A stretch of 64,000 nucleotides of DNA from Candidatus Dormibacteria bacterium (GTDB lineage: Bacteria > Chloroflexota > Dormibacteria > Aeolococcales > Aeolococcaceae): the NCBI GenBank assembly GCA_051002895.1, contig JBPCLW010000042.1:120927-184926 (forward strand), given 5' to 3'. The position numbers and the translations under genes are program-made. Below, piece by piece: positions 40,649 through 60,998 of the stretch. Numbering within the stretch: the stretch's first letter is position 1; each line of letters starts with the position of its first letter. Under the pieces are notes generated by a model, which did not search any database, was not told where the DNA came from, and was given only the letters and a program-made list of their open reading frames with translations.

Positions 40649-40655
40649 GCTCGGG

Positions 40656-41722: not shown

Positions 41723-44407
41723 CTACCCGAGTCTGACAGCCTCACCATCTTCTACGGCAGCGCGCTCGCCATTCTGCGGCAGTGACCGAATGCGGCGGAG
41801 CACCGCGAACGGGGTCTGTTCATCCGTCTGACCCAGAGGGTTGTCGGCGAAGAGCGCCCCCAACGCGGGACGATCGATGCTGCGGCTGGTCCCGAGGATG
41901 TCTGCCGCGAGGTCATTGGTGTCGACGACGGCGACGTCGACGTCCACTCCGCTGCGTTTCAGCAGCATGCCAGCGACCTCCCCCGCAACGCGATCGGCGT
42001 CCTCGGGCGCCTTCGAGGCATGGGTGTTGTACGGCGGGATGGTGTGCGCTGTCGGTCCATCGATAGCCGCTACATTCGGGCCGGCGACGCGGTAGAACAC
42101 GCCCCGCACCCCCAAGGGGCGGGTGACCGCAGCAGCGGCGGCGGCGGCGATGATGCGGGGAACGCCCGCTTCCTCGATGGCAAGTTGCATGGTCTGGGGA
42201 CGGCCAAGGCCGATACCGATGGGTACTCGACTCACAAACCTCGAGAGCAGGCGAGCCAGAGGCGTCACCGCAATCTCGTCCATGGGCAGAGAGCGGCCCT
42301 GGGTGATCGACACCACCTTCTCGCTGAGGGCAACGACGTCCCCATCCTCGAGCTGGACGCCGCGTTCAGCCAGACCTCGGAGCGCATCGATCAAGGTGCG
42401 GCCCAGGTCGTCGCCGGGCCTCACCAGCGACGACCGCACAGGAATTCGTGCCCACGTCTGCGCGCCACGTTGGATGAGCAGATGGCGTCCGGGATTGGGC
42501 GACACAGCTGCAAGCAGAGGTTGCGCGGTGGTACCAGGGGCGGCGGCACGGTCACCGCGACCAACAAAGCCGAGATGCCAGCTTGAGTCATCCAGAGAGC
42601 GTGCCTGGGAGTCAATGTACAAACGCATCCAGATTTCGACATTGACGGCGCGCCAGAAGAACATCGACTCCTCGCTGCCGCCGGCGCAGGCAACGCGAAA
42701 TGCGTCGGCAACGCGCTCGGCATTCCAGAAAGGACGGGAGGCGAAACTGGGCGAGCGCATCAGCGATTGGATGGCGGGGCGCTGCTGCCGGAACCAGCGA
42801 AACTCCGGCGTGGTGAAGCCGATCTTCTTGCGCCGCGTCCGCACCCTTTCCGGGAGAAGCCCGCGGAACCCGTCACGGAGGATGGCACGGCTCCAGCCGC
42901 CACCAACCAGAGCCGATGCGGGCAGGCGAAGGATCCATTCCACGAGTTCCTGATCCAGGAAGGGCAGCCGCGACTCCACGGAGTGCGCCATCGAGTTGCG
43001 ATCCTCATAGCGCAGCAACGAGGGCAGGCTGAAGGTCTGGAGATCCTGGAGCAGCCGCTTTTTCAGGTCGTCCTGTATGCGTGGATCACAGGGGGTGCGC
43101 AGTTCACGCGTCCAGGTCTTGCGGAGCAGCGAAGGGACGCGCACTCCGCGCCGCCGCTCCCAGAGCCGGCGTCGTACCAGGGGACCGACGGTATCGAGAG
43201 CCTTGGCGGACTCCCGAGCAAAGTCAACGTAGCGCTTGTCGCGGAGGAGCTGGCGCAGGTAGACGTACTGGTACGGGACGTAGCCGGCGAGGAGCTCGTC
43301 ACCCGCCTGACCGTCGAGCAGCACGGTGACCTTCTCACTCGCCGCCCGCATCACCGACCACATCGCGTACGGCGCTGTACTGACCATCGGCTCCTCGGCG
43401 AACCAGATCCAAGCCTCGAGTTCCTCGATCCACTGTTCCGAGGTCGGCTTCACCCACGTTGGATCGGCCGCGGTCACCGCCAGCACCGCGTCCATGTACG
43501 GCTTCTCATCGATGGGATCACCGGGGAAAATCGCGGAGAACGTCTTCAGTCGGCCTCCCAGTGACGTCGAATCGGGAACCCTCGCCGCGAGCAGCTGGTC
43601 CATGACGCAAACGATCGATGAGGAGTCGAGCCCACCGGAGAGACACGTTCCCACGGGTACGTCAGCGACGAGCCGTCGCTCCACTGCCTTGGTGAAGAGG
43701 CGGCGGAACTCCGCCGGATCGGGATCGGCGTCCTCGTTGAGGACGGGATCCCAGTATCGATGCACGCTGACGCCGCCACCATCAACGACGGCGTAGGCCG
43801 CCGCCGGCACCTGCTGGATGCCGGCGAAAAATGTCAGGTCGTTGTGGTCGTAGAGTCCCCAGGCCAGGTACTCGTAGAGTTGCTGCTCGTCGACGCGGCG
43901 CGGGAACGTCGCATCCTGAAGGATTGACTTGATCTCCGACGCGAAGACCACACGGTCGTCGTGCTGCGCATAGAAGAGCGGCTTGATGCCGAAGTGGTCA
44001 CGGCAGAGGATGAGGCGCGGTTCACTTCCGCGCTCGTCGAGCAGCGCCAGGGCCCACATTCCGTTGAAGCGCGAAAAGGCGGTTGGTCCCCAGGCGGCGA
44101 AGGCGTGGAGCGCAACTTCGGTGTCAGAACTGGTCTGAAAGGTGCGGCCCTGCGCCTCGAGATCAGCGCGCAACTCGCGATAGTTGTAGATCTCGCCGTT
44201 GTAGATGATGGTGAGCCGGCCGCCATCGGTCGAGATCGGCTGGTCACCCGTGGCCAGGTCGATGATCGAGAGCCGGCGAAAGCCCAGACTGGCCGCGGAA
44301 GTCTCGTGGAAGCCATCACCGTTGGGCCCGCGATGCAGCTGCGCAGCAGTCATGTCGCGAAGGAGCGCGCTATCGCGACGGCCGTAGAACCCGCAGATCC
44401 CGCACAT
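41723..44407 (-). CDS. glutamine-hydrolysing asparagine-synthetase-type amidotransferase fused to a C-terminal CofE-like (F420-0:gamma-glutamyl ligase family) domain
   Basis: N-terminal MCGICG Ntn-glutaminase nucleophile; SGGLDSS PP-loop in the synthetase domain. C-terminal ~270 aa contains VRPGDDLGRTLIDAL...LEDGDVVALSEKVVSITQGR and VDVAVVDTND, matching CofE/FbiB N-domain blocks. Confidence 0.8.
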   Translation of the reverse strand: MCGICGFYGRRDSALLRDMTAAQLHRGPNGDGFHETSAASLGFRRLSIIDLATGDQPISTDGGRLTIIYNGEIYNYRELRADLEAQGRTFQTSSDTEVALHAFAAWGPTAFSRFNGMWALALLDERGSEPRLILCRDHFGIKPLFYAQHDDRVVFASEIKSILQDATFPRRVDEQQLYEYLAWGLYDHNDLTFFAGIQQVPAAAYAVVDGGGVSVHRYWDPVLNEDADPDPAEFRRLFTKAVERRLVADVPVGTCLSGGLDSSSIVCVMDQLLAARVPDSTSLGGRLKTFSAIFPGDPIDEKPYMDAVLAVTAADPTWVKPTSEQWIEELEAWIWFAEEPMVSTAPYAMWSVMRAASEKVTVLLDGQAGDELLAGYVPYQYVYLRQLLRDKRYVDFARESAKALDTVGPLVRRRLWERRRGVRVPSLLRKTWTRELRTPCDPRIQDDLKKRLLQDLQTFSLPSLLRYEDRNSMAHSVESRLPFLDQELVEWILRLPASALVGGGWSRAILRDGFRGLLPERVRTRRKKIGFTTPEFRWFRQQRPAIQSLMRSPSFASRPFWNAERVADAFRVACAGGSEESMFFWRAVNVEIWMRLYIDSQARSLDDSSWHLGFVGRGDRAAAPGTTAQPLLAAVSPNPGRHLLIQRGAQTWARIPVRSSLVRPGDDLGRTLIDALRGLAERGVQLEDGDVVALSEKVVSITQGRSLPMDEIAVTPLARLLSRFVSRVPIGIGLGRPQTMQLAIEEAGVPRIIAAAAAAAVTRPLGVRGVFYRVAGPNVAAIDGPTAHTIPPYNTHASKAPEDADRVAGEVAGMLLKRSGVDVDVAVVDTNDLAADILGTSRSIDRPALGALFADNPLGQTDEQTPFAVLRRIRSLPQNGERAAVEDGEAVRLG

Positions 44408-44497: not shown

Positions 44498-46165
44498 TTA
44501 GAAGTCCATGTCGTCCATGCCACCCATGCCGCCCATACCGCCGCCACCGTGCGAGTGGCCCCCCCCGGCAGCCGCATCGTCGCCGGCGTCGGGCTCGGGT
44601 GCGTCGGCGACGAGCGCAGAGGTGGTGAGCACCATGGTGGCGATGGAGATGGCGCTGGTCACCGCCGTGGTCACCACCTTGGTGGGGTCGATGATCCCCG
44701 CCTTGACGAGGTCGGTGTACTCCTCGGTGGCGGCATTGAACCCGTGATCACCGGTGAGGTCGTCGACGCGGCGGGCGACGACGCCGCCCTCGAGACCTGC
44801 ATTGTCCGCGATGACCCGAACGGGATCCTCGAGCGCCCGACGAACGATCCTCACACCAACCGCCTGGTCTCCATCGAGCTTCAGCGCATCGAGAGCGGAG
44901 CGGGCCCGAAGCAGGGCAACGCCACCGCCGGCGACGACCCCATCCGCGAGCGCAGCGCGGGTTGCATGCAGGGCATCCTCGACACGGGCCTTGCGCTCCT
45001 TCATGGCCACCTCGGTGGCTGCGCCGACTGACACCACGGCGATGCCGCCGCTGAGACGAGCGAGACGCTCCTGGAGCTTCTCCTTGTCCCAGTCGGACTC
45101 GGTCTCCTCGATCTGGCCACGAATCTCGGCGCAACGCGCCTCGATCTGCGTCTTGGTGCCGGTGCCACCGACGATGGTGGTCTCCTCCTTGGTGACGGTG
45201 ATGCGCTTGGCCTTGCCGAGATGCTCGGGACGTACCGCCTCCAGGCTGAGCCCGACCTCCTCGGTGATGACTGTCCCACCGGTGAGCGTCGCCAGGTCCT
45301 GGAGCATGGCCTTCCGGCGATCCCCGAAGCCCGGAGCCTTTACCGCCACTGCGGTGAAGCTGCCGCGCATACGGTTGACAACCAGGGTTGCCAGCGCCTC
45401 GGCGGTGACATCCTCAGCAACGATGAGAAGCGGAGTCCGCTCCTTGACGACGAGCTCCAGAGAGGGCAGCAGATCCTTGACCGCGCTGATCTTGGCGTCA
45501 GTCATGAGGATGGCGGCGTTCTCGAGCTCGGCAACCATCTCCTTCTGGTCTGTGACCAGGTAGGCGGAGATGTAGCCGCGGTCGAACTGCATGCCCTCAA
45601 CAACCTCGACATCGGTCTCGATGCCATCGCTCGACTCGATGGTGACAACACCATCGCGGCCGACCTTGGCGAAGGCCTGGGCAAGGAGGCGACCGATCTC
45701 AGGGTCACCGGAACTCACCGTGGCAACGCGCTCGATGTCGTCGTCACCCTTGATGGGATGCGACTGCTTGCGCACCGCGGCGACAACCGCCTGCAGCGCC
45801 GCGAGCATGCCCTGACGGATCTCGATCGATGAGGCTCCGGCGGTGAGTTGCCGCAGGCCCTCGCGAATCATGGCCCGAGCCAGGACCGTCGCCGTCGTGG
45901 TGCCATCACCAGCGACGTCGTTGGTCTTGATCGCAACCTCCTTGAGCAACTGCGCGCCCATATTCTCGAAGTGATCGGCGAACTCAAGCTCCCGGGCGAT
46001 CGTCACCCCGTCGTTGATGATCAGGGGCGCCCCGAACTTCTTGTCGAGAACGACAGTGCGCCCGCGGGGGCCGAGCGTGACGGCAACGGCGTCGGCAACC
46101 TGGTCGACACCGTGCTGAAGCAGATGGCGAGCATCGTGATCGAAGCGAAGTTGTTTGGCGGGCAT
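44498..46165 (-). CDS. groEL: chaperonin GroEL
   Basis: [12 protein letters not shown] motif and C-terminal GGM repeats ([14 protein letters not shown]); 555 aa. Confidence 0.95.
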
Positions 46166-46253: not shown

Positions 46254-46556
46254 CTAGTTGGCGGCGACGACGGCGAGAATGTCCTTCTCGCCGAGGATCA
46301 AGTAATCGACATCGTCGATCTTGACCTCGCTGCCGGCGTACTTCGCGTACATCACGCGGTCGCCGATGCTGACATCGAGCTTGATGCGCTCACCGGTACG
46401 CTCATTGAAACGACCGGTCCCGACTGCCTCGATCGTGCCCTCCTGAGGCTTCTCTTTGGCGGTGTCGGGGAGAACGATGCCACTCTTGGTGACCTCTTCA
46501 CGGTCGGCGGGCTTGATGACGACGCGATCGGCGAGGGGACGGAGCTTCAAGGCCAC
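46254..46556 (-). CDS. groES: co-chaperonin GroES
   Basis: [12 protein letters not shown]...[17 protein letters not shown]; 100 aa. Confidence 0.95.
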
Positions 46557-47626: not shown

Positions 47627-48640
47627 TTAACCGCCGCTCGGGGGCTCCTCGTCCCCGCTCATGGCCATGAGTTGCTCGAGCGCTGAGCTCACCTGGTTGA
47701 GGTTCTGCTCCATGTCCTCCTGAGCAGCGACGGCGGCAGCCGTCAGTTGGGCGGCAAAGACGTTGATGTCGGGCAGGCCCTCGGGACCAGCTTTGATACG
47801 ACGAATGGTGTCGGCAAAGTCGCGCACCGAGCTGCGCGCCCACATTGCCCCCACCTCGTTGTCCGATCGCCCCTGGAGGCCGTTGACATCCACCCAGTCC
47901 TGGCGCAGGCCCGCTAGGGTGTTCTCCAGGGACCGGCGGAGATCCAGGATCGCGCCAGGCTTGGCCAGAACATGCGGGTCACCGAAGAGCTGGGCCGCGG
48001 ACCAGCGCATGGCCAGGCGCCACGTCGCCATCTGTCCCGCGCCGTCCGCAGCGAGCCCGCAGAGCTCACTGCGGACCGTGGTGCCGAGGGCGGTCGCAAC
48101 CTCTGAACAGAGATCGAGAACGGTCTGCGCATGGGCCGAGAAATGCATGCGGATAGGGCGCGCCTCGAGCAGGCGCGCATCCACCGCGACGAGGCCCACC
48201 TCACTGCGGTAGTCGTCACGGACGATCTCAACGAGGCACTCGGCGACTCCTTCGCTGATGATCGATGCCTGCGGATACCGCAGATAGGACGTCCACTCCA
48301 GTTCGGCAAGGCTTGCATCTTCGGGCCCGGCGCCATGGAGGCAGGCGTGCAGGCGCGCGTCGATGAAGCCGGTCACAACCTTGTGGTTCCAGCGCTCGTT
48401 GCGGTCATCGCCGAGCCGGCCGCTGGTGTACTCGCCCTCACAGAAGGCTTCTTCCTTCGCTGCCACCACGGGATGAACGGCAGCCAGCGCCTGGCGAGGA
48501 AGAAACGCGGCGTCTACCCCGGGCATGATGTCGGGGAGTTCTGGCCAGACGGCGCAGCGGGCATGGCAACGAGCCCCGAGGATGCTGGTCAGCACGCTCG
48601 GGGTGATGTCGTAGACGCGCTCGAGGTTGAGCCTGGCCAT
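47627..48640 (-). CDS. hypothetical protein (337 aa), Cys-containing N-terminus, adjacent to ideR
   Basis: Strong GC3 coding bias; includes CHARC and several conserved-looking Cys/His; not assigned to a family. Confidence 0.5.
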   Translation of the reverse strand: MARLNLERVYDITPSVLTSILGARCHARCAVWPELPDIMPGVDAAFLPRQALAAVHPVVAAKEEAFCEGEYTSGRLGDDRNERWNHKVVTGFIDARLHACLHGAGPEDASLAELEWTSYLRYPQASIISEGVAECLVEIVRDDYRSEVGLVAVDARLLEARPIRMHFSAHAQTVLDLCSEVATALGTTVRSELCGLAADGAGQMATWRLAMRWSAAQLFGDPHVLAKPGAILDLRRSLENTLAGLRQDWVDVNGLQGRSDNEVGAMWARSSVRDFADTIRRIKAGPEGLPDINVFAAQLTAAAVAAQEDMEQNLNQVSSALEQLMAMSGDEEPPSGG

Positions 48641-48691
48641 GGGGATCCCCCCGTTATTCTCCGTGCTGACTGGAGCCCGTGCGTCATTCGA

Positions 48692-49714
48692 TCACGCGTA
48701 CTCGTCGAGACTCGGGTCCACATCGAACGCGGCGTCCGCGCCGTGGCACCGGAATCGGTGCCACCCCGCTGCGGCGATCATGGCCGCATTGTCGGTGCAG
48801 AGGGACATAGGGGGAATGCTCAGTCTGAGTCCGGAGAATCGCCGCTCGACGGCAGAACGGAGTGCGAGGTTCGCGGCAACGCCGCCGACCACCGCAAGGC
48901 TGACGGCGCCAGTGCGTTCCACCGCAGCCTCGGCGCCGTCGACGAGCTGGGCCACGGCGGCGGCCTGAAAACTCGCGGCCAAGTCGGCACGAACCCGACG
49001 GTCGGCGGGAGCGCCCCCGGCGTCGACGGCATCCGCCCCGAGATCGCGAATCGCGTAGCGCAGCGCCGTCTTCAGCCCACTGAAGGAGAAGGCATCCTCG
49101 AGACGCGTCCGTGGCAGGGGGAATCGCGCCTCATCACCCTCGGCGGCAACTCGCTCCACTGCGGGCCCACCCGGGAACCCCAGGCCGAGCATGCGCGCCG
49201 CCTTGTCGAAGGCCTCGCCGGCGGCGTCGTCGCGCGTGCTCGCCAGACGAACGGCGTCACCATGGGTTCGCAACTCCACGGTGTCGGTGTGACCGCCGCT
49301 GACCACCAGCGCGACGTAGGGAGGTTCCAGCTTGGGGTCGGCGAGCCAGGCTGAGTACACGTGGCCTGCCATGTGGGAAACGCCGCAAATCGGCAGACCT
49401 CGGACCGCCGCCACCGCCTGGGCATAGGCGGTGCCGACGACAAGGCAACCGATGAGTCCAGGGCCCCGCGTCACTGCCACCGCATCGATCCCCTCCCATC
49501 CACCGACGTGTTGAAGTGCCTCGTCCACGACGGGGGCGATGCATTCCAGATGGGCCCGCGCGGCGAGCTCGGGGACAACGCCTCCGAACCGCTCGTGGAG
49601 ACTGATTTGCGAAGCGACCACCGAGCTGACGACCTCGCGACCGTCACGGAGGACGGCGGCCGCGGTCTCGTCGCAGGAGGTCTCGATGGCGAGCAGCGTC
49701 CCCGGCGAGCGCAT
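48692..49714 (-). CDS. tsaD: tRNA N6-adenosine threonylcarbamoyltransferase
   Basis: LAIETSCDETAAAV...GVSHMAGH blocks; the listed ORF has an 80-aa N-terminal over-extension. Confidence 0.9.
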   Translation of the reverse strand: MRSPGTLLAIETSCDETAAAVLRDGREVVSSVVASQISLHERFGGVVPELAARAHLECIAPVVDEALQHVGGWEGIDAVAVTRGPGLIGCLVVGTAYAQAVAAVRGLPICGVSHMAGHVYSAWLADPKLEPPYVALVVSGGHTDTVELRTHGDAVRLASTRDDAAGEAFDKAARMLGLGFPGGPAVERVAAEGDEARFPLPRTRLEDAFSFSGLKTALRYAIRDLGADAVDAGGAPADRRVRADLAASFQAAAVAQLVDGAEAAVERTGAVSLAVVGGVAANLALRSAVERRFSGLRLSIPPMSLCTDNAAMIAAAGWHRFRCHGADAAFDVDPSLDEYA

Positions 49715-49725
49715 GAGGTTCGTGC

Positions 49726-51291
49726 CTAGCAGAAGGTGGGCGATCCGAAAGCGGCGGGGACCAGCAGGACGTACGACTCCGGTTCGACGACGCGGTTCTG
49801 CCAGTAAACGCCACCGGTGAATGTCCGTGCCACCCGGTACCCGGGAAGGCAGACCAGCTTCTGGGTCGACGACTTGACGCCCACCACGATGTACTCGGGA
49901 CGCGTCGCTATTAACGTCGTCGGATCGTCGACGAGACCGGAGCTCGTCGACCACCGCCAGTACGACGGCCGATGACCCTGATTGAAGTTCATGAAGATAT
50001 TGTCGGGAAAGTACGGGAGGATGGCGACCAGGCTGTAGTTGAGCGCCGCTCCCCGGCGGTGGTCAAGCCCGTTGTCCTTGATGTACTGGGCGACGTCCCG
50101 ACTGGCCGAGTAGTTGTTGCCCGCGTCGTAGCGGATGCTGTTGATCGTCCAGTTGCCCTGGATGAGCAAAGTGATAACCATTGCCGCCGTGATCGCCAGC
50201 GCCGGCCGGTGGGACGGGGATGGAGTGGCAGCCGGCGCGACGCGATCGCGCTCGAAGGCGATCCAGAGGGCGAAGACCCAAACCAAAAAGAGGATGCCCT
50301 CATGCCACACGTTGAGGTACTTCAACGAGAAGAGCAGCAGCAGCGCCGTGGTGGGGAGGATGAAGACGAGGAGTGATCGCGTTCGCTGCAACCACCAGGC
50401 GGTGACGGCCAGGACCGCCACCGACACCACATTCACCGCTATCGCATGGGTGAGGTTGAGAGGGGCGGTCCGCGCTAGATGGAAGAGGTCGAAGTTCCAG
50501 CCTGCAGCGGCGGCGAGGTCGCCCGCCGGACGCATGGTGAACGCCGCTCCCGCCGCGACCACGCCGAACCCCACCAGAGCGATGATGTGGCGGCGCCGAA
50601 GCGCCGGTTGCAGCTCCCCCCAACGTGTGCGGAGGTCGAGCAGGTGGACGAGCTGCAGCGAACCCGCGATCAGAAGACCATGCAGGCTGACGGTGCTGAG
50701 CAGAGCCAGGAGCGCGCTCCAGCGCCAGGGGTGTTCCAGCTTGCGAGAGTGGACATGAGCCGCCAGGAACAGAATCGGAGCGAGCAGGCAATAGCTCCGC
50801 GCCACCACCCCGTACTGATAGAGGATGAAGAAGGAAAAAGGGAACAGCACCCGCACCAGCGCGGGGAACGGGGCGCGACGGACAAAGATAAACACCCCAA
50901 CCACCGAGATGAGCGCGGCAATCACGTTGATGGAGATGTACGGCAGGTTCAGCTTCGCGGCGGGCATGAGCAGCAGGTGCCAGAGCGGCGGCGAGCCCTC
51001 GTAACGCATCCTTGTGGTCAGCAGATCCAGCGGTGACGCGTCGCGGGCAATCAGCCACGCTTGCGCCTCGTCGAACCAGGGCTCGTGCAGGGGCAGCATC
51101 GCCGTCAGCACTCCGGCGTACATGGCGACAACGCCGTACTCCCACCAGCGCGTCCAGCGCCGCCGCGGTGGCGGCGCCACCAGCGGTTCAGCGAGACTCG
51201 CACCAGAGGCTGCGTGGCCCGGAACAACGGTGACCTCCGGCGACGCAGCGTTCTCCTCCAGTGTCCTGGGGGAAAGCAACGCACTCAGCAT
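49726..51291 (-). CDS. polytopic membrane protein, putative GT-C-fold glycosyltransferase
   Basis: About 10 TM helices; FDE motif in the first extracytoplasmic loop (HEPWFDEAQAWLIARD); soluble C-terminal domain; 521 aa. Confidence 0.6.
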   Translation of the reverse strand: MLSALLSPRTLEENAASPEVTVVPGHAASGASLAEPLVAPPPRRRWTRWWEYGVVAMYAGVLTAMLPLHEPWFDEAQAWLIARDASPLDLLTTRMRYEGSPPLWHLLLMPAAKLNLPYISINVIAALISVVGVFIFVRRAPFPALVRVLFPFSFFILYQYGVVARSYCLLAPILFLAAHVHSRKLEHPWRWSALLALLSTVSLHGLLIAGSLQLVHLLDLRTRWGELQPALRRRHIIALVGFGVVAAGAAFTMRPAGDLAAAAGWNFDLFHLARTAPLNLTHAIAVNVVSVAVLAVTAWWLQRTRSLLVFILPTTALLLLFSLKYLNVWHEGILFLVWVFALWIAFERDRVAPAATPSPSHRPALAITAAMVITLLIQGNWTINSIRYDAGNNYSASRDVAQYIKDNGLDHRRGAALNYSLVAILPYFPDNIFMNFNQGHRPSYWRWSTSSGLVDDPTTLIATRPEYIVVGVKSSTQKLVCLPGYRVARTFTGGVYWQNRVVEPESYVLLVPAAFGSPTFC

Positions 51292-51330
51292 CGAGCTACA
51301 TTGGGCATGGCGGATGGAACCTCTCCACCT

Positions 51331-52911
51331 TCAGCGGGCGGCGCTGACGGGGGATGCGACGGGGCGCGCCTCGGCCGACACCTCGTGATAGTCCTCCTCG
51401 ACGTTGACATCCCAGACGTCGTGGTGCGTGCCCTCAAGAATGTTCTGCACCGTCAGCTGGGCGGTGAACATCGAGTGGTCCTGGTTGTTGTAGCGGAACA
51501 TCCCATTGCGCCCCACCGGATGCAGATTCGGCGTATTCGCCGCGATCCAGTGGCGCATGGTTTCGATATTGCGCTTGTAGGATGCGTCGTAATACGGGTA
51601 CGCCTTGGGCATGCGGACAACAAACCCACGCTCGACCTGCGCGGACTTCACCAGCCCCAGTTCGCGAAGTTCCCGCTTCGCCTGGACGATGAGATCCTCG
51701 TCCGAACGATTCCACGTGGCATCGCCGACGGTCACGAAGTACTCCAGCCCCAGGCAAGTCTTTCCCTCTTTCACGAGATACGGTGACCAGGAGCCGAAGT
51801 TTTGGATGCGACCCACCTCCACCTCGGGCGAGTGCACGTAGATCCAGTTGTCAGGAAACCCGGCGCTCTCGGGGACGACGAGGGCGACGGTGAGGAAGTC
51901 CCGATACTTCAGCGCGTGCGCCGCCGCCAGCACCTCGGACGGAGGCGGAGGGTCGAGCGAGCTGACCAGCGACGAGAACGGCATCGAGGAGATGAATTCA
52001 TCGCCTGTGTGAAGATGCTCGCTACCGATGTCAGTGCGCGTGCCGTGGGGAGCACCGGCACCGGGACCGTAACCGCCCGTCACCACCGTGGTGACGCTGG
52101 TGACGCCCTTGCCCTGCTCCCAGTGGAGAGTTCGGACCTTCTCTTCGAGAATGATCCTGCCCGTACCCTCGGTGATCTTGCGAGCGGCCGCCTCCCACAT
52201 CATTCCTGGGCCGTACTTGGGGTACTGGAACTCCTCGATGAGGGAGGTGATCTGTTTCCCCGTCCGCTTCGGCCTGATCGCGTTGGTGATGGCTGAGAGG
52301 AGGGAGAGATCCTTGATGCGCTGCGCCGCCCAATCGGCCTCCAACTCGCTGCCGGGGACGCCCCACAACTTCTGGGTGTAGTTCCTGAAGAAGTGGTTGT
52401 AGAGCCGCCATCCGAACCGGGCGGCCACCCAGCCCTCAAACTTGGTCTGATCCTTGGGAGGATGGACCCGCGCCCACATGTACGACAGCACGCAGCGGAT
52501 GGCTTCGATGACGCCGAGATTCTTGAGCGCGTTCGAGGCCTTGAGAGGGTAGTCGTACAGCTTGCCGTTGTAGAAGATGCGGCTCATCCGCGGTCGCATC
52601 AGAAAGTCCTCGTCGGGCAGGATCTCATGCCAGAGCGCCTCCACCTCGGGCACCTTGGTGAAGAACCGGTGACCACCGATGTCGAAGCGCCACCCCTCCC
52701 GCTCAGCCGTGCGGCTGATGCCTCCCACAATGGCATCACCCTCCAGCACGGTGCAGGGAACGCCTGCCTGGGAGAGTTTGTAGGCGGCCGTCAGGCCGGC
52801 GGGTCCGGCTCCGATCACCACGACCTTCGGCGGCGACCCCGGGGTTCTGGGTGTGGCCGGACGGGAAGCCTTCGCCGCCTCGTCTCTTGCCCGCGCACTG
52901 CCCCCCACGAC
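51331..52911 (-). CDS. UDP-galactopyranose mutase-family FAD flavoenzyme (long form, ~520 aa)
   Basis: VVVIGAGPAGL Rossmann motif; IVGGISRTAEREGWRFDIGGHRFFT aligns with UGM HIGGNAY...GAHLFHT; YTQKLWG and AYPYYD blocks. Start uncertain; the Ser/Pro-rich N-terminus of the listed ORF is probably spurious. Confidence 0.7.
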   Translation of the reverse strand, partial: VVGGSARARDEAAKASRPATPRTPGSPPKVVVIGAGPAGLTAAYKLSQAGVPCTVLEGDAIVGGISRTAEREGWRFDIGGHRFFTKVPEVEALWHEILPDEDFLMRPRMSRIFYNGKLYDYPLKASNALKNLGVIEAIRCVLSYMWARVHPPKDQTKFEGWVAARFGWRLYNHFFRNYTQKLWGVPGSELEADWAAQRIKDLSLLSAITNAIRPKRTGKQITSLIEEFQYPKYGPGMMWEAAARKITEGTGRIILEEKVRTLHWEQGKGVTSVTTVVTGGYGPGAGAPHGTRTDIGSEHLHTGDEFISSMPFSSLVSSLDPPPPSEVLAAAHALKYRDFLTVALVVPESAGFPDNWIYVHSPEVEVGRIQNFGSWSPYLVKEGKTCLGLEYFVTVGDATWNRSDEDLIVQAKRELRELGLVKSAQVERGFVVRMPKAYPYYDASYKRNIETMRHWIAANTPNLHPVGRNGMFRYNNQDHSMFTAQLTVQNILEGTHHDVWDVNVEEDYHEVSAEARPVASPVSAAR

Positions 52912-53029
52912 TCCGAAGTATAGAGTCCCAGGCTTCGACGGCGTGGACGACCGACAGGACGGGGATGTGAGAGAGGCGATCAACGCCCCTGCCGGCAGGG
53001 CTGTGCGGCTCGGCCAGGTGACCGCCGTG

Positions 53030-54559
53030 ATGGCGCTCAGCTTCCTGCTTCGCTTGGGTCTCGGCCTCCTACAGCCGCCGGAGGCGGATGAGGCAACGCT
53101 CGGAGTTGCCGCGCTGAGGCTGCTCCATGGCCACCTCATAACGATGGAGAGCAACGCTCACTACCTGGGGGCGGCCGGGGTGTACATCGTCGCCCCCTTT
53201 GTCGCCGTCTTGGGTCCCACCACGCTGGCCCTGCGGCTGCCGATGAGCCTCCTGGGCGCTGTCACGGTGCTCCTGATGTACGCACTGGGGCGGTCACTGT
53301 GGGGGCGACATGTTGACGGGCTGGCCGCCGCAGGGCTAGCCGCAGTCTTCCCCCTCTTCGCGGTGCTGTTCACCGTTCGCTCGCAGTGGGCCTACGGCGA
53401 AGTGGTACCGCTCGAGGCCGCCCTGCTGCTGCTGACTGTGCGAATAGGTTGGCGGGGCCGTCGAAAGGCGCGCGACTGGTGCCTGCTGGGGCTAATCGGA
53501 GGCGTCGCGCTGTGGACCACGCCGCTGCTCGCAGTGGTGATCATTCCCTGCGCAGCGGCGCTGGTGCTCCGTGGACCGGTCATGGGGTGGCGTTCGCTCG
53601 GCCGAGGGGCGGCTCTTGCACTGGTCGGAGCGGTCGTCGGCCTGCCCCCCTGGCTGGCGTACAACGCCAGTCACCAGTGGGGCAGCCTCACCGGGATACC
53701 CCGCCAGCGAACCGGGATCCGTCACGCCGTCCACGAGGTCCTGGTCTCAGCGTTGCCCATCTTTGCGGGCAGCCAGCGCAGTTGCGCCCCCGTCCGGACA
53801 ATCCCGCCGGAGCTCGCTGCCGGCCTGGTGCTGCTCCTTCTCATGGGGGCAGCGCTGACCCGCCGCGAAGCGCTATGGGGTGCCTTGCACGGCCGGTGGG
53901 GGGCACTGGAGCCGGTGGACCTCATTCTCATCATTGCCCCCATCTCCATCGCGAGCGTCACCATCGGGAGCTTCAACGCTGTGTCCTGCGAGCCCCGCTA
54001 TCTGCTGCCGCTGACCGCCCCTCTTGTCGTCAGCGGGGTCGTCGCGCTGCGCCATTGGCGGGGTGTGACCATCGTCATGCTGGCGGCGTGGCTGATGGTC
54101 GAGACGGTGACAACGGTCCGAACGCCTCGCCTCGATAACGTCACGGTCGCGGGACCCGTCGTCCCCGCCGATGTGGCCTCTCTGGTTCCGGCATTGGAGG
54201 AACAGCGTCTCCAGGCCATTTACGCTGACTACTGGCTGTCACGGCCGCTGTTGTTCGCCAGCAGCGAGCGGTTACCAATGGCCGAGTACAACGGCTACGT
54301 GGGCTTTCCCGGGCTGCAACGTGCTGCCGACGAGGCCAAGCATCCCAGCTGGTTGTTCGTGCAGGGATCTCCAGACATCGCGCGGCTGGAACAGGCCTGT
54401 CGGAACCGTGGCATCACGTTTCGGCGCGTGCAACTCGGCTCCTTGGTGCTCGACGCCGACCTCTCCGCGCCACTGCGTCCTGCCGATCTCGGAGTATCCG
54501 TGGACCCGAGCAAACTGCCTCTCGTGCCCCGGACCGAGGATGACGGGGGGCAGCCATGA
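53030..54559 (+). CDS. polytopic membrane protein, putative GT-C-fold (PMT/ArnT-like) glycosyltransferase
   Basis: EADEATLGVAALRL Asp-Glu loop motif after TM1; more than 10 TM helices; C-terminal soluble domain. Confidence 0.6.
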   Translation: MALSFLLRLGLGLLQPPEADEATLGVAALRLLHGHLITMESNAHYLGAAGVYIVAPFVAVLGPTTLALRLPMSLLGAVTVLLMYALGRSLWGRHVDGLAAAGLAAVFPLFAVLFTVRSQWAYGEVVPLEAALLLLTVRIGWRGRRKARDWCLLGLIGGVALWTTPLLAVVIIPCAAALVLRGPVMGWRSLGRGAALALVGAVVGLPPWLAYNASHQWGSLTGIPRQRTGIRHAVHEVLVSALPIFAGSQRSCAPVRTIPPELAAGLVLLLLMGAALTRREALWGALHGRWGALEPVDLILIIAPISIASVTIGSFNAVSCEPRYLLPLTAPLVVSGVVALRHWRGVTIVMLAAWLMVETVTTVRTPRLDNVTVAGPVVPADVASLVPALEEQRLQAIYADYWLSRPLLFASSERLPMAEYNGYVGFPGLQRAADEAKHPSWLFVQGSPDIARLEQACRNRGITFRRVQLGSLVLDADLSAPLRPADLGVSVDPSKLPLVPRTEDDGGQP

Positions 54560-54599
54560 CCCGTTGCTCCCGATCAGCGCGGGCGCGCGCCGCACCGGC

Positions 54600-55157
54600 T
54601 CAACCCTGGGGATACTCGGGTGGTGGAGGTGCCCCAATACCGATGATGTCAATACTCGTGAGAATGTCGCAAAATCGTTCCTTGAAACGCGGCGCATGCA
54701 GCGAGTCGCTCCACATGATCACGGCATCCTCGCCGTTGTCCGTGTAATAGCCTCGACGCTGGCCGATGGCTCGGAAACCAAAACGTTCATACAGTCGAAT
54801 CGCCAACGCATTGGTCGCCCGCACCTCGAGGGTGATCCAGCGCGCCCCGAGTTCGTAGCTGCGCTGCAATAGGGCCGCAAACAGCACGGTGCCGTAGCCC
54901 TGGCGCTGGGAGTGAGGGCGCACCCCAATCGTGGTGATGTGGGCCTCGTGAACGACCTTCCAGAGCCCCGCGTAGCCGATGAGCTCCTCGCCATCTCGCA
55001 GAACGATGTAGTGAGCCTGGCGGTTCTGAGAGAGCTCGGCGGCGTAGGCGTTCTTCGGCCAAGGGGAGATGAAGATCTCACGTTCGATGTGCTGCACCAC
55101 GGGGATGTCCGAGTGGCGCATGTGCTCGATGGCGAGACGCGGCGCGACCTGCATCAC
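54600..55157 (-). CDS. rimI: ribosomal-protein-alanine N-acetyltransferase (GNAT)
   Basis: GNAT motifs RQGYGTVL and LEVRATNALAIRLYERFGF; located beside tsaB. Confidence 0.85.
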   Translation of the reverse strand: MMQVAPRLAIEHMRHSDIPVVQHIEREIFISPWPKNAYAAELSQNRQAHYIVLRDGEELIGYAGLWKVVHEAHITTIGVRPHSQRQGYGTVLFAALLQRSYELGARWITLEVRATNALAIRLYERFGFRAIGQRRGYYTDNGEDAVIMWSDSLHAPRFKERFCDILTSIDIIGIGAPPPPEYPQG

Positions 55158-55193
55158 CCCGATGATACGGGACCCTCAGCGCAGTTCCCATGA

Positions 55194-55748
55194 TCAGTCG
55201 ACGTAGTTGGCAACGATGCCGGCCAGATCCAGGGCCGGGGAGGTGAGCGCGCCGGGAACGATCGCCGCCAGCCCCGCGGCGTGAGCATGCCCCGCAACAT
55301 CCTCGAGCCGAGCACACGGGATGGGTGGCGCCTGATCACCGGCCAGCCGGCGGAGCGGCGAAATCGGCGCCCACTCGTGGCCAGACCTTGCATATTCCCT
55401 CAGGTACCGTCCCCCGCGGCCCGCGTCGAGCGACGCCATACCCGGTGTCTCGAGGGCCGCCGCCGCGACAACGACGTCAAGGCTGCACACGCCGTGCAGG
55501 GGGACGCCGGTGGCTTGAGCAACCCCAACCGCCGCGGCCAGCCCAGCACGCAGCCCGGTGAAACTGCCAGGACCAACGACGCAGACGACAGCGTCGACAT
55601 CACTGGCCGCCGCCTCGCGCATGGCGATGGCGAGGAGCTCGACGGCGGCGCCATTCCGACATCCGCCGGAAAGCATCCCGCCCCGCCTATCGGCAACGAC
55701 CACGACGACCCGTCCCCGCGAGGCGGTGTCGATCGCGAGGACGCTCAT
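55194..55748 (-). CDS. tsaB: tRNA threonylcarbamoyladenosine biosynthesis protein TsaB
   Basis: LAIDTAS...VVCVVGPGSFTGLR YeaZ-family blocks. Confidence 0.85.
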   Translation of the reverse strand: MSVLAIDTASRGRVVVVVADRRGGMLSGGCRNGAAVELLAIAMREAAASDVDAVVCVVGPGSFTGLRAGLAAAVGVAQATGVPLHGVCSLDVVVAAAALETPGMASLDAGRGGRYLREYARSGHEWAPISPLRRLAGDQAPPIPCARLEDVAGHAHAAGLAAIVPGALTSPALDLAGIVANYVD

Positions 55749-57422: not shown

Positions 57423-58547
57423 TTGCGGGGGATCCGCCGCGCACTCCTGATCACCTTGGCCGCTGTTGCCGTCCTCGCTGGCATCCCCGCAGGCACAGTC
57501 CCGGCCCAAGCCGACGCCAAGACCGACCAGCTCCGTGCCCACCGCGCCCAGCTCGTGGCGCAGTTCGCTGCGGTTCGATCGGGTCGCACCAGCGCCCACG
57601 ACCAGCTCACCGTGGCTGAGGATGCCTACAACGCGGGGCAGGCGAAGGTCCTCGATGCCCAGCATCAAATCGATCAGTTCAACGTGGACCTGAAGAACCT
57701 TGACGCTGAGGTGAAGGCTGACGAGGCGACCGCGGCGGCGGCGCGCAAGTCGCTGGCCCAGATCACCCGTGTGACCTACGAGACCGCCCAGAACGATTCG
57801 GTCATGACCGCGGTCTTCAGCGCCAAGGACTTCTCGGCCGCGATGGACTCCCTGAACGGGGCCACCCGCGTCACCGCGCAGATTCAGTCGCTGGAGAACA
57901 CGCTGGCCCACAAGCAGGCCGATCTCCAGACGAAGCGACGCCAACTCCAGAGCGACTTCGCCCAGACCACCGCTCTCCAAGAACAGCTGGCCGGCGACGC
58001 CAACAAGCTGATGATCATTGTCAGTCAGCGCAACCAGCTCGCCGCCTCGCTGAACGGACCGGCTCGCGACCTCGCCGCGCAGATCGCCGACATCGACAAC
58101 CAGCTCGCCGGGGGAAGCCTCCCCGCCACGGGCAGCCTCCCTGCCACGGGCAGCGTGCCTGGCTCCAGTGGCTACACGCCCCCACCCGGCGGAGGCTCCT
58201 GCGGCAATCACTTCGGCTACGGCCAGTGCACCTGGTACGTCGCTGGGCGTCGTTGCATCCCCTGGATCGGCAACGCCAAGGATTGGTACTACGCGGCTGC
58301 GAAGTATGGCTACAGCGTCGGACACACCCCGGCCGCGGGAGCCGTGGGGGTGTACTGGCCAGGTCGCGGCGGCGCCGGCTCTGTGGGCCACGTCGTCTAC
58401 GTCGAGGCCGTGGGTCCCGCCGACGGCATCCCTGCGGGATCGTTCCGGCTCTCGGAGATGAATTGGAGCGGATGGAATCGTGTTGACTACCGCGTGGTGG
58501 CCAATGACCCCAACGTGTTCCAGGGCTTCGTCTACGGCCACCCCTGA
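57423..58547 (+). CDS. secreted peptidoglycan hydrolase: signal peptide, coiled-coil, repeat linker, C-terminal CHAP domain
   Basis: N-terminal signal peptide; heptad-rich region (RipA-like); CHAP Cys/His blocks (GYGQCTWYVAGRR...SVGHVVYVE). Confidence 0.8.
   Translation: MRGIRRALLITLAAVAVLAGIPAGTVPAQADAKTDQLRAHRAQLVAQFAAVRSGRTSAHDQLTVAEDAYNAGQAKVLDAQHQIDQFNVDLKNLDAEVKADEATAAAARKSLAQITRVTYETAQNDSVMTAVFSAKDFSAAMDSLNGATRVTAQIQSLENTLAHKQADLQTKRRQLQSDFAQTTALQEQLAGDANKLMIIVSQRNQLAASLNGPARDLAAQIADIDNQLAGGSLPATGSLPATGSVPGSSGYTPPPGGGSCGNHFGYGQCTWYVAGRRCIPWIGNAKDWYYAAAKYGYSVGHTPAAGAVGVYWPGRGGAGSVGHVVYVEAVGPADGIPAGSFRLSEMNWSGWNRVDYRVVANDPNVFQGFVYGHP
58113..58163 (+). repeat. 18-nt tandem repeat (about 2.8 copies) encoding the GSLPATG linker
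   Basis: ggaagcctccccgccacg / ggcagcctccctgccacg / ggcagcgtgcctggc. Confidence 0.7.
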
Positions 58548-59726: not shown

Positions 59727-60998
59727 TCACCCCACCGACCCCCGCCCCGGGCGCAGGCCTTCGAGGGTCCGCCGCAGCCGCTCCTGAGCGACGGGCAGCG
59801 CGTCGACGACGTCGCCCGCCAAGCCCCCCGCCCGGCCCCGCTGGGACTCGACGATGCACCCCGCCTCGGCATGGATGGTCACCGCGGCGACCGCGGCGTC
59901 GAAGACATCGAGACCACCAGCGAGCATGGCCCCACAGAGACCGGCGAGGACGTCACCGGTGCCGCCCGTTGCCAGGGCGACGGTGCGATGACCGTCAACA
60001 TGTGTGCGGCCGTCGGGGGCGGCAACGACCGTCCCCGCGCCCTTGAGGACGACCACGACGCCGCACTGCGTGGCGTACCGGGAAGCGACGCCATCGCGAT
60101 CACCCTGTACTGCGCCGATGTCAGTGCCAACCAGCCGAGCCATCTCCGCGGGATGAGGCGTGATCACCACCGGTCTATTGCAGCGATGCCAATCGAACCC
60201 CTGCGCGGCAGCGATGTTGAGGCCATCAGCGTCCACAACAAGGGGCGCGGTTGTGATGGCAGGGAGCAGGTCGGCGAGCGCCATCTCCGTCCCAGGGTCA
60301 CGCCCCAAGCCGGGCCCGACCACCACCGCGGAGGCGTCGCCAAGCTGCTTGTCGAGGAGGGCGGCAACCGCCCGCCGACCCAGCCCAGTGGTGCCGTTCT
60401 CGTCGACCGGAAGGGCTTGGGCCATCACCTCGAGGCACATGGGGGCGACCGTGGCGTAGATGGCGTCCGGAACGCACAGCCGCACCTTGCCAGCTCCGCC
60501 CCGGGCGGCACCGAGGGCAGCAAGCACAGCCGCTCCGGCGGTTCCCGGCGACCCGGCGATCAGAGTGACTGTTCCGAAGGTGCCCTTATGCCCGTCGGCG
60601 GGACGCTCGGGGAGTCGCAGGCCGGGCGGTGGGGGGAGCGCTGGGGCGCCCCAGAGCCCGTCGTCGGCGGTGGCCGCCACGGCAATGGCGAGCCCGGCAT
60701 CGTGGGTGAGAGTGAGGGCGATATCGGTGTCCATTCCTCCGATACGGATCATGGGAGCGCCGCCGCGACGATTGACGACCTCGATCGAGCGATAGGTCGG
60801 GATGGGCACCCCCCGACTGCCGCAAAGCTTCTTGACCGCTTCCTTGGCCGCCCAGCGGCTGGCAAATCGCTCGATCTTGGCACCACAGCGGCGTCGCTCA
60901 GTCGCGGTAAAGATCTTTTCGGCGAATCGAGGACGGCGTTGCAGGACGCCGGCGATGCGCTGAATCGAGGTGATGTCGACGCCGATCGCAACTGCCAT
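59727..60998 (-). CDS. fusion of holo-ACP synthase (AcpS) with ADP-dependent NAD(P)H-hydrate dehydratase (YjeF C-terminal domain)
   Basis: N-terminal ~120 aa (VAIGVDITSIQRI...WAAKEAVKKL...IRIGGMDTDIALTLTHDAGLAIAVA) is 4'-phosphopantetheinyl transferase. After a Pro-rich linker, HKGTFGTVTLIAGS...GGTGDVLAG is the YjeF_C carbohydrate-kinase-like domain. Confidence 0.8.
   Translation of the reverse strand: MAVAIGVDITSIQRIAGVLQRRPRFAEKIFTATERRRCGAKIERFASRWAAKEAVKKLCGSRGVPIPTYRSIEVVNRRGGAPMIRIGGMDTDIALTLTHDAGLAIAVAATADDGLWGAPALPPPPGLRLPERPADGHKGTFGTVTLIAGSPGTAGAAVLAALGAARGGAGKVRLCVPDAIYATVAPMCLEVMAQALPVDENGTTGLGRRAVAALLDKQLGDASAVVVGPGLGRDPGTEMALADLLPAITTAPLVVDADGLNIAAAQGFDWHRCNRPVVITPHPAEMARLVGTDIGAVQGDRDGVASRYATQCGVVVVLKGAGTVVAAPDGRTHVDGHRTVALATGGTGDVLAGLCGAMLAGGLDVFDAAVAAVTIHAEAGCIVESQRGRAGGLAGDVVDALPVAQERLRRTLEGLRPGRGSVG

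Follow-up and report, generated by a model that had tools for sequence, protein, structure and literature searches.

GT-C enzymes require a lipid-phosphate donor. The known galactofuranose routes place the sugar in the cytoplasm from UDP-Galf, and to our knowledge pentofuranoses are the only furanoses known to reach GT-C enzymes on a lipid carrier. In mycobacteria, UDP-Galf is used by the cytoplasmic GT-A enzymes GlfT1/2, and the GT-Cs (AftA, AftB, Emb) use decaprenyl-P-arabinofuranose, which is made from PRPP; DprE1 has another flavoenzyme fold. Three-component transmembrane glycosylation systems consist of a GtrB/CsbB-type GT2, a GtrA-type flippase and a GT-C, and are described for O-antigen, LTA and WTA (PMC8035078, PMC11127046). 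In their pentofuranose variants, with ORF12 of Citrobacter youngae as the founder of GT136, the route starts from PRPP and uses a polyprenyl-phosphate phosphoribosyltransferase and SDR epimerases (PMC11127046). In this study, we analyzed a 64-kb stretch (the window) of a Candidatus Dormibacteria MAG, from an uncultured soil bacterium, in which a UGM-like flavoprotein lies between two membrane proteins, here named memA and memB. With a probability of roughly 45%, we read these genes as a glycosylation cassette (memB divergent from flavoprotein and memA) that was relocated into the rimI-tsaD junction in one Dormibacteria lineage and would serve extracytoplasmic furanose glycosylation.

Between rimI and tsaD, in a housekeeping operon for tRNA modification, we find three genes. 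memA (49726-51291, minus strand) encodes a membrane protein of 521 aa with a GT-C fold. The flavoprotein gene (51331-52908, minus strand; about 525 aa) is part of an ORF spanning 51331-53154, with GTG 52908 as likely start. The divergent memB on the plus strand ends at 54559 within the ORF 52853-54559 and starts either at GTG 52943 (NCBI call, 538 aa) or at GTG 52967 (530 aa). On one side, a 40-nt spacer (54560-54599) separates memB from the convergent rimI (54600-55157, minus strand; TIGR01575, 135 bits), with which the tsaE-tsaB-rimI unit ends; alr and tsaE are separated by thiL and a CHAP-domain gene. On the other side, tsaD (48692-49714, minus strand; TIGR03723, 372 bits) has an N-terminus that is 7 residues longer (MRSPGTL) than in the close relatives L002 and L078, with which the junction was compared. 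A preliminary description of this DNA had claimed that three genes split rimI and tsaD, and this is borne out by the ORFs, with the junction otherwise conserved. Its actinobacterial frame does not fit the host, and the direct order tsaD-groES has to be corrected, as hyp337 and a DtxR/MntR-like regulator intervene before groES and groEL.

Between the memA stop, which ends at 49726, and the tsaD ATG at 49714 only 11 nt remain on the minus strand (49715-49725); the closeness noted before is thereby confirmed, while the figure of 12 nt is not. The spacer contains no terminator-like site and no significant hairpin (z=-0.09). Because of the short gap and the missing terminator, tsaD is probably transcribed from the flavoprotein-memA transcript of the cassette, in agreement with the co-transcription proposed earlier. 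The insertion is an example of how expression of an essential gene, here tsaD, may become dependent on an accessory envelope cassette and its promoter. The divergent intergenic region (52909-52942), defined by the sequence and the start-codon candidates, contains the sole AT-rich patch (AAGTATAGAGT / ACTCTATACTT) and presumably holds the two promoters from which memB and flavoprotein-memA(-tsaD) are transcribed in opposite directions. A consensus sigma-70 scan of 48600-55300 returned no promoter-like site. In the same interval, four terminator-like sites were detected, all of them intragenic and not above shuffled expectation, and none of the folded junctions, the memB/rimI spacer included, beats shuffled sequence.

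With 793.6 bits (cut-off 389), the flavoprotein is a member of NCBIfam PRK07208.1-4 (NF005548, 'hypothetical protein'); it is predicted to be cytoplasmic, having neither a signal peptide nor a TM segment. Its Pfam matches are Amino_oxidase (top match, E=4e-19) and NAD_binding_8; PF03275 (GLF) gave no match at E<=0.01, and a homologue from locus L083 has a 'faint' precomputed PF03275 match only. A profile search against the PDB retrieved the UGM of Aspergillus fumigatus (AfUGM) at E=1e-31 in three aligned segments and amine oxidases at 1e-9. The AF2 model has a pLDDT of 80.5, and its top 34 Foldseek matches are all eukaryotic UGMs; the next-best fold matches are protoporphyrinogen oxidases (E 1e-23), which by TM-score come almost as close (0.66/0.76 vs 0.73/0.75 for UGM). 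The FAD Rossmann motif G17-A-G19-P-A-G22 and the histidine loop G62-G63-H64 are invariant, the latter aligning with AfUGM G61-G62-H63. In UGM, this loop lies next to the flavin N5, and R182/R327 form the diphosphate-binding Arg pair. All 14 mapped equivalents of AfUGM active-site residues are invariant (H63, R91, Y104, F158, Y162, W167, R182, W315, Y317, R327, Y419, R447, Y453, N457). R182, R327, Y419, Y453, R447 and N457 correspond to R181, R351, Y421, Y457, R451 and N459 of the family, where the partner of R327 is the Arg of a GRIQN motif in a segment of low alignment score. Four substrate-contact positions differ: Q107K, N163T, N207I (I208) and Y334W (W358), which in AfUGM we take to be contacts to uridine and galactose. 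By sequence and model, the flavoprotein is therefore UGM-like, with eukaryote-type UGMs as nearest solved relatives; the earlier assignment to the UGM family stands in this sense, on the basis of profile, fold and catalytic residues, while the PF03275 check proposed for it failed.

The comparison with eukaryote-type UGMs (A. fumigatus, T. cruzi; 3ukh, 3ute, 4dsg) thus shows a shared fold (TM 0.73-0.82) and shared active-site residues, including the GGH loop, both the Arg and the Tyr pair (R182/R327, Y419/Y453), R447, N457, W167, W315 and Y317. Unlike these enzymes, the flavoprotein, known from sequence and model, is bacterial (PRK07208), only about 21% identical overall, carries a Gly-rich insert (GGYGPGAGAP) and has GT-Cs as partners instead of Golgi-type or GT-A Galf transferases.

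In memA, an Arg-rich N-terminus precedes TM1 (helix 45-68), and an F73-D74-E75 motif follows immediately in the first outer loop; its acidic residues D74 and E75 do not vary across 62 homologues. The conserved N-terminal transmembrane module and the long first outer loop agree with a GT-C fold, and the conserved acidic residues lie in the first extracytoplasmic loop as expected of GT-Cs. The C-terminus (about residues 400-521) forms a beta-rich soluble domain. None of the 62 family members matches a GT-C Pfam model (PMT, PMT_2, GT87, Arabinose_trans and others), and Pfam and NCBIfam gave a single sub-threshold EpsG match (1/62). At 50% identity, the family falls into about 6,600 clusters, and it has no Pfam model. 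memB matches PF13231 (38.6 bits, cut-off 26.1) and is by Pfam a PMT_2/ArnT-like GT-C, named 'ArnT family glycosyltransferase' or GT39 by NCBI. Its EADEA motif directly follows TM1, with D41 and E42 invariant in 21 homologues; only 24 homologues were found, and all named ones are from Dormibacteria. The GT-C call previously made for both membrane proteins holds for memB; for memA it holds with respect to fold and acidic loop and fails with respect to membership in a GT-C family described in Pfam. memB as ArnT proper (lipid A L-Ara4N transferase) was rejected (NF009784, 15.4 bits vs a cut-off of 567), as was a paralogous origin of memA and memB, since hhalign of the two families shows no relationship (probability 0.1%). 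PDB searches with single sequences and family profiles of memA and memB returned nothing usable: the memA family profile had no match to PDB sequences, and chance matches to Met-tRNA ligase appeared at E about 0.1.

Pairing of memA homologues with the flavoprotein was counted in the 34 loci whose flanks extend over 1.5 kb or more. A flavoprotein was found within 6 kb in 15 of these loci and within 500 bp in 8, so that about 40% of the well-flanked loci are paired; as roughly 55-60% lack it, memA does not strictly need the flavoprotein. Conversely, a GT-C-like neighbour was present in all seven flavoprotein contexts examined. Among the neighbours at 25 paired loci were PMT_2 (11), GtrA (7) and GT2 (4), and locus L162 combines memA, GtrA and flavoprotein with a GtrB-like GT2, which carries a GEYLARTY motif and has two TM helices at its C-terminus. 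Loci with the pair come from Dormibacterota, Actinomycetota (Frankia, Geodermatophilus, Modestobacter), a Bacillota-like genome and metagenome contigs without classification. A literature search on UGM with GtrA and GT-C, on the Dormibacterota envelope and on bacterial eukaryote-type UGM yielded no paper on the pairing and no lipid-linked hexofuranose (galactofuranose) donor; a paper on the Actinoplanes gsf cluster proved unrelated to it.

Likeness to the three-component systems is found in the outward-facing acidic loop of the GT-Cs, in the frequent GtrA of homologous loci and in the GtrB-like GT2 of L162. Unlike those systems, the locus has a UGM-like flavoenzyme as core component, which is undescribed for them, it pairs two unrelated GT-Cs, and its memA belongs to a GT-C family with neither a Pfam model nor a characterised member. 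Also, the set of GtrA, GtrB and GT-C is incomplete here: no GtrB-like synthase, GtrA or other flippase, or polyprenyl-phosphate sugar synthase is encoded in the island or elsewhere in the 64-kb window. The resemblance to the mycobacterial glf/GT-C locus, suggested in the preliminary description, is superficial for the same reason and because UDP-Galf is used by GT-A enzymes there; in addition, the UbiA-type phosphoribosyltransferase and the DprE2 of the mycobacterial arabinogalactan pathway (glf-glfT2; UbiA/DprE1/DprE2 and the GtrA-like Rv3789) are missing here. With the pentofuranose systems, the locus shares the principle that a GT-C adds a furanose outside the cytoplasm, while an auxiliary enzyme inside it determines which sugar is added. 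Here, this auxiliary enzyme is the UGM-like flavoprotein, suggesting a hexofuranose route.

Sugar, lipid carrier step and acceptor of the cassette's system are presumptive; the acceptor may be a wall glycan or a protein. Judged by its conserved catalytic residues, the cytoplasmic flavoprotein would act as a UGM-type, non-redox pyranose-to-furanose mutase on a nucleotide sugar, with UDP-Galp to UDP-Galf as the default guess; because of the four differing substrate-contacting positions, its sugar or nucleotide may be another. As homologous loci suggest, a GtrB-like GT2 encoded elsewhere in the genome would attach the furanose to polyprenyl phosphate, and the lipid-linked furanose would be exported by a flippase of the GtrA type. 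Beyond this locus, it is possible, albeit doubtful, that flavoprotein and GT-Cs form a widespread undescribed hexofuranosylation pathway with a polyprenyl-P furanose donor at the outer face, either loaded by a GtrB-like synthase or made by the mutase on lipid-linked pyranose, from which dedicated GT-C families, the memA family among them, transfer the sugar. The conserved pairing of UGM-like enzyme, GT-C and GtrA would point to such a lipid-linked route. Bacterial glycobiology would then gain a new intermediate, a lipid-linked donor of galactofuranose or a similar sugar, which would be for hexoses what decaprenyl-P-arabinofuranose is for pentoses. It would also gain a first functional handle on PRK07208 and the memA GT-Cs, both of them large and uncharacterised families. 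Since the pairing occurs in cultured actinomycetes, the idea is testable there. Enzymes making and transferring furanoses are drug and vaccine targets, and mammals, as far as we know, do not have furanose sugars. For the uncultured phylum Dormibacterota, the cassette also offers a small hint about the chemistry of the envelope.

Other functions of the flavoprotein were considered. It might convert a polyprenyl-P-hexopyranose, supplied by a housekeeping synthase, into the polyprenyl-P-hexofuranose prior to flipping and GT-C transfer. This would agree with the rarity of GT2 synthase genes (4/25 paired loci) next to common GtrA and GT-Cs and with the exchanges Q107K and N163T at positions that presumably contact the uridine moiety in AfUGM, but F158, Y104 and W167 of the nucleotide pocket are kept and the modelled protein has no membrane-binding segment. 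We know of no mutase for polyprenyl monophosphate sugars; analogous enzymes are DprE1/DprE2, acting on decaprenyl-P-ribose, and the SDR ORF13, acting on undecaprenyl-P-ribofuranose. Although tailoring of lipid-linked monosaccharides before GT-C transfer as such has precedent (PMC11127046), we consider a mutase of this kind unlikely. Similarly improbable is a true oxidoreductase of the amine-oxidase/protoporphyrinogen-oxidase/phytoene-desaturase superfamily that oxidises or desaturates a sugar, the lipid carrier or the acceptor instead of contracting a ring, with the GT-Cs using an ordinary pyranose donor. The top Pfam domain, the NCBI family name 'NAD(P)/FAD-dependent oxidoreductase', the protoporphyrinogen oxidases as next-best fold matches and the absence of PF03275 argue for it; the UGM-specific residues (GGH loop, R182/R327, Y419/Y453, R447, N457), however, are invariant, and in the profile search UGMs rank ahead of every oxidase by >20 orders of magnitude. 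We also give little weight to a third scheme, in which cytoplasmic transferases encoded elsewhere build the furanose into an undecaprenyl-diphosphate oligosaccharide and memA and/or memB act as en-bloc transferases, polymerases or ligases, in the manner of oligosaccharyltransferases.

The reading as a relocated furanosylation cassette also has to be weighed against three functionally unlinked, ordinary accessory genes, or an ancestral arrangement that was lost elsewhere. In favor of these alternatives, the island genes have GC3 values (0.79-0.83) inside the range of the window (0.71-0.86), so that GC3 gives no island signature; no integrase, transposase or other mobility gene is present at the island, and a repeat search at its flanks for target-site duplications and inverted ends gave short chance matches only. 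Among 60 windows, the island has the second lowest tetranucleotide correlation (0.950); coding bias of membrane proteins confounds this value, and it was not counted as evidence of foreign origin, since hydrophobic membrane proteins are the products of two of the three genes. Against an unlinked or ancestral set, rimI abuts tsaD without the cassette in the two closest genomes, L002 (TsaD 73% identical) and L078 (69%), and the two genes are contiguous also in the more distant L003, L004 and L008. The island genes are absent from all 80 TsaD loci compared. As the adjacency is seen alike across Dormibacterota, Chloroflexota and Actinomycetota loci, it represents the ancestral state. Furthermore, in three other Dormibacteria contigs (L089, L170, L172) the cassette recurs with unchanged orientation beside argH-metallophosphoesterase, with identities of 58% for memB, 73% for the flavoprotein and 59% for memA. 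Together, cassette-free closest genomes and arg-linked copies identify the cassette at rimI-tsaD as a relocated unit, not an ancestral one; the insertion proposed earlier thus passed the synteny test on relatives. The flanks of the arg locus in the other Dormibacteria (argG, argH, metallophosphoesterase and a 67-aa gene) were not found within the window. With the flavoprotein-GT-C pairing recurring in several phyla as well, the unlinked or ancestral alternative is largely refuted already and very improbable.

In an NJ tree without support values, the flavoprotein of the window is placed nearer to Frankiaceae-type sequences than to the arg-linked Dormibacteria copies, which hints at an inter-phylum transfer of this gene.

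Three genes lie between rimI and tsaD in this Candidatus Dormibacteria genome, as the preliminary description had observed, and its coordinates and gene descriptions proved correct when ORFs and spacers were checked on the sequence. The minus strand carries alr (58561-~59700), thiL (56194-~57200), tsaE (55745-~56200), tsaB (55194-55748), and rimI (54600-55157), with a CHAP-domain gene on the plus strand (57423-58547) between alr and thiL. Then follows the cassette, consisting of the memB ORF (52853-54559, plus strand; start GTG 52943 in the NCBI call, 538 aa, or GTG 52967, 530 aa), the ORF of a UGM-like flavoprotein (51331-53154, minus strand; likely start GTG 52908, giving 525 aa; UGM, UDP-galactopyranose mutase), and memA (49726-51291, minus strand, 521 aa). 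The converging memB and rimI stops are 40 nt apart, and 11 nt separate the memA stop from the ATG of tsaD (48692-49714, minus strand), which lies downstream of the cassette in transcription order. The gene order previously given was broadly right, except that tsaD and groES (46254-46556) are parted by two minus-strand genes, an unannotatable 337-aa ORF (47627-48640) and a DtxR/MntR-type regulator (46639-~47325); groEL (44498-46165, minus strand) follows groES. The observation is confirmed, and its interpretation is supported in part. As a rearrangement, the insertion is ordinary; of greater interest is the conserved but unstudied association of UGM-like enzymes of the PRK07208 group with GT-C transferases and GtrA.

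The flavoprotein matched NCBIfam NF005548 (PRK07208.1-4, "hypothetical protein") with 793.6 bits and, in Pfam, Amino_oxidase and NAD_binding_8, while the Pfam search gave no match to PF03275 (GLF). Its nearest solved relatives are eukaryote-type UGMs, which were reached with E=2e-24 by the single sequence and with E=1e-31 by the family profile, to which bacterial UGMs and amine oxidases matched at 1e-16 and 1e-9, respectively. In Foldseek searches with the AlphaFold model (pLDDT 80.5), the top 34 matches were UGMs of A. fumigatus or T. cruzi (E down to 1.8e-29, TM 0.73-0.82 against UGMs), followed by protoporphyrinogen oxidases (E 1e-23). Residues were mapped by HMMER alignments using the native numbering of the A. 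fumigatus enzyme (AfUGM), anchored on the PDB-title mutants F66, Y104, Q107, N207, Y317, R182, and R327. Thereby, AfUGM H63 (GGH loop), R91, Y104, F158, Y162, W167, R182, W315, Y317, R327, Y419, R447, Y453, and N457 were found to map to invariant positions of the flavoprotein family. Four positions differ (Q107K, N163T, N207I, and Y334W), and the AfUGM residues at these positions are presumably uridine or galactose contacts. The flavoprotein is cytoplasmic and has the active site of a UGM. Its earlier designation as a UGM-family flavoenzyme holds by sequence, fold, and active-site residues, but not with respect to GLF membership, and its substrate may differ from that of known UGMs.

The earlier GT-C call for the two membrane proteins holds; they are unrelated to each other and have outward acidic loops. 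MemB scored above the cut-off of PF13231 (PMT_2) and has an invariant Asp-Glu (EADEA) right after its first transmembrane helix. Only 24 memB homologues were detected, and all named ones are from Dormibacteria. An assignment of memB as an ArnT equivalog was ruled out (15 bits vs a cut-off of 567). In memA, the invariant residues H69, W72, D74, E75, Q77, and W79 directly follow TM1; the Arg-rich tail ahead of TM1 implies that the Asp-Glu pair points outward, as it does in GT-C catalytic loops. ALG6, AglB, ArnT, and PimE appeared as later entries in the list of membrane-protein comparisons. Kinship between memA and memB was rejected, their profiles being unrelated (hhalign probability 0.1%). The memA family is large: when clustered at 50% identity, it counts 6,637 clusters for E<=1e-3 and 3,556 for E<=1e-30, and members with a named source come from Dormibacteria, Actinomycetota, Clostridia/Bacillota, Acidobacteriota, and Bacteroidota.

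GT-C-like neighbours were present in all seven examined contexts of flavoprotein homologues. A Dormibacteraeota locus (L082) has a DUF2142 gene divergent from flavoprotein and memA, a 4.3-Mb Bacillota-like genome (L083) has the order PMT-GtrA-flavoprotein-memA, a locus of Geodermatophilus sp. DSM 44513 (CP135963.1; L087) combines the flavoprotein with a PMT-like gene, and a Frankiaceae locus (L088) contains PMT_2, a 561-aa membrane protein, flavoprotein, and PMT_2; the remaining three are Dormibacteria contigs (L089, L170, L172) with memB divergent from flavoprotein-memA. Conversely, the flavoprotein was located within 6 kb in 23 of 80 metagenome loci anchored on memA homologues; for the 34 memA loci whose flanks reach 1.5 kb or more on each side, it lay within 6 kb in 15 and within 500 bp in 8. 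Counting Pfam domains among the 114 neighbours in 25 paired loci gave PMT_2 (11), GtrA (7), NHL propeller (7), GT2 (4), and SDR epimerase (3). Locus L162 contains memA-GtrA-flavoprotein and, a few genes further, a 319-aa GT2 protein built like the polyprenyl-phosphate sugar synthases of the GtrB/DPM1 type, having two TM helices at its C-terminus and a GEYLARTY motif. The metagenome locus L090 (700-14900) is exceptionally crowded with GT-C genes: besides GtrA and the flavoprotein, it has three memA paralogues in tandem, two GT-Cs resembling PMT_2/TMEM260, and an LtaS-type membrane protein with a sulfatase fold. GT-C enzymes, the UGM-like flavoprotein, and GtrA are recurrently linked. Among L084, L085, and memA-anchored loci lacking the flavoprotein, a NAD-dependent epimerase/dehydratase of the SDR type neighbours memA in 11 cases, and DUF2142 membrane proteins recur too. 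By analogy with pentofuranose systems, this suggests that memA-family enzymes may also be coupled to epimerase-tailored donors.

The pairing of PRK07208 proteins, GT-Cs, and GtrA suggests a lipid-linked hexofuranose glycosylation route, the functional steps of which we infer computationally. The flavoprotein would contract a nucleotide-sugar pyranose to the furanose, a GtrB-like synthase and a flippase of the GtrA type, with genes lying beyond the window, would deliver the furanose as polyprenyl-phosphate sugar, and memA and memB would pass it to envelope acceptors. Alternatively, the mutase could work directly on the lipid-linked sugar, or the flavoprotein could have a genuine redox role; the GT-Cs might also act as en-bloc transferases. 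The previously proposed analogy to the mycobacterial glf/GT-C locus is weak and only loosely apt: in mycobacteria, GT-A enzymes in the cytoplasm consume UDP-Galf, and decaprenyl-P-Araf serves as donor for the GT-Cs. The closest concepts are the multi-component transmembrane glycosylation system (PMC8035078) and its pentofuranose variant, where the identity of the sugar depends on an auxiliary enzyme in the cytoplasm (PMC11127046). Literature searches found no paper on a UGM-like component in such systems.

The insertion into the rimI-tsaD pair had been framed in an actinobacterial context. This premise failed, as a TsaD search of 185,579 species genomes matched best to Candidatus Dormibacterota MAGs (73% and 69% identity) and memA is identical to the NCBI protein ACR2GX_07085, encoded on a 270-kb contig of a "Candidatus Dormibacteria bacterium". 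The insertion itself was borne out. In the two closest genomes (L002, L078) and the more distant L003, L004, and L008, rimI runs directly into tsaD, its stop adjoining or overlapping the start of the latter, and no homologues of memA, flavoprotein, or memB were found across 80 TsaD-anchored loci. The same cassette with the same layout occurs elsewhere in the other Dormibacteria contigs L089, L170, and L172, where it adjoins argG-argH-metallophosphoesterase and a 67-aa gene (identities of L089 to the window: memB 58%, flavoprotein 73%, memA 59%). An identical arrangement at this site in relatives, which would have refuted the insertion, was not found, and the unit has moved as a block. No mobility genes or flanking repeats were found around it, and the GC3 of its genes is not deviant (0.79-0.83 vs 0.71-0.86 for the other genes of the window). 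Its tetranucleotide usage was the second most deviant of 60 windows, which was not counted as evidence because two hydrophobic membrane proteins can explain the deviation.

The flavoprotein is unusually conserved: it shares 78-83% identity with proteins of Frankiaceae type and from soil metagenomes, compared with 71-73% for the Dormibacteria copies at the arg locus. In nucleotide sequence, it has 79.6% identity with the copy of a Frankiaceae MAG (L088; 78-80% in amino acids) vs 72-74% with the Dormibacteria copies (L089, L170, L172), and in an NJ tree without support values it groups with the Frankiaceae-type clade. Unlike the flavoprotein, memA and memB are closest to Dormibacteria. These sequence similarities hint at an exchange of the flavoprotein between phyla, and the contrast may reflect mosaic origin or inter-phylum transfer.

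On the tsaD side, CTAGG..GAACCTC and the bases just upstream of tsaD (CTAGGCACGAACCTC) resemble the rimI-stop/tsaD junction of L002 (CTAGGAATCCTGAACCTC). Compared with L002 (1890-1910) and L078 (9995-10010), the tsaD 5′ end gained 21 nt (49694-49714) encoding MRSPGTL with a new ATG, so that the TsaD N-terminus reads MRSPGTL-LAIETSCDE vs NLLAIETSCDE in relatives, where tsaD starts without an ATG and in coupling to the rimI stop. The memA-tsaD junction has no terminator and no significant hairpin, and the only AT-rich patch is located in the divergent spacer of 34-58 nt, from which we infer that tsaD is most likely transcribed together with flavoprotein and memA. From flavoprotein stop to memA start (51285-51330, minus strand) there is a mini-ORF of 7 codons (AUG CCC AAU GUA GCU CGA UGC UGA) with an SD-like AGGUGGAGAGG upstream, the stop of which overlaps the memA AUG; it may serve translational coupling or be due to chance.

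Neither Pfam nor NCBIfam gave a match for the 337-aa ORF (47627-48640). None of the 80 TsaD loci has it, not even those of the two closest Dormibacterota genomes; this part of the operon seems to have received a second insertion specific to the lineage. Several other minus-strand genes of the window encode fused or interrupted proteins. An 894-aa AsnB-type asparagine synthase (41723-44407; GATase_7 and Asn_synthase) has a C-terminal F420-0:gamma-glutamyl ligase domain (CofE-like, PF01996), an unusual amidotransferase-ligase fusion. A 1106-aa UvrD/PcrA-type helicase (37712-41032) contains an intein (PF14890) at residues ~405-626, and a 677-aa protein (33875-35908) joins three enzymes in one chain, namely chorismate mutase, prephenate dehydratase, and DAHP synthase. 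At 59727-60998, holo-ACP synthase (ACPS) is joined to an NAD(P)H-hydrate dehydratase domain, followed by glmS (61008-62849).
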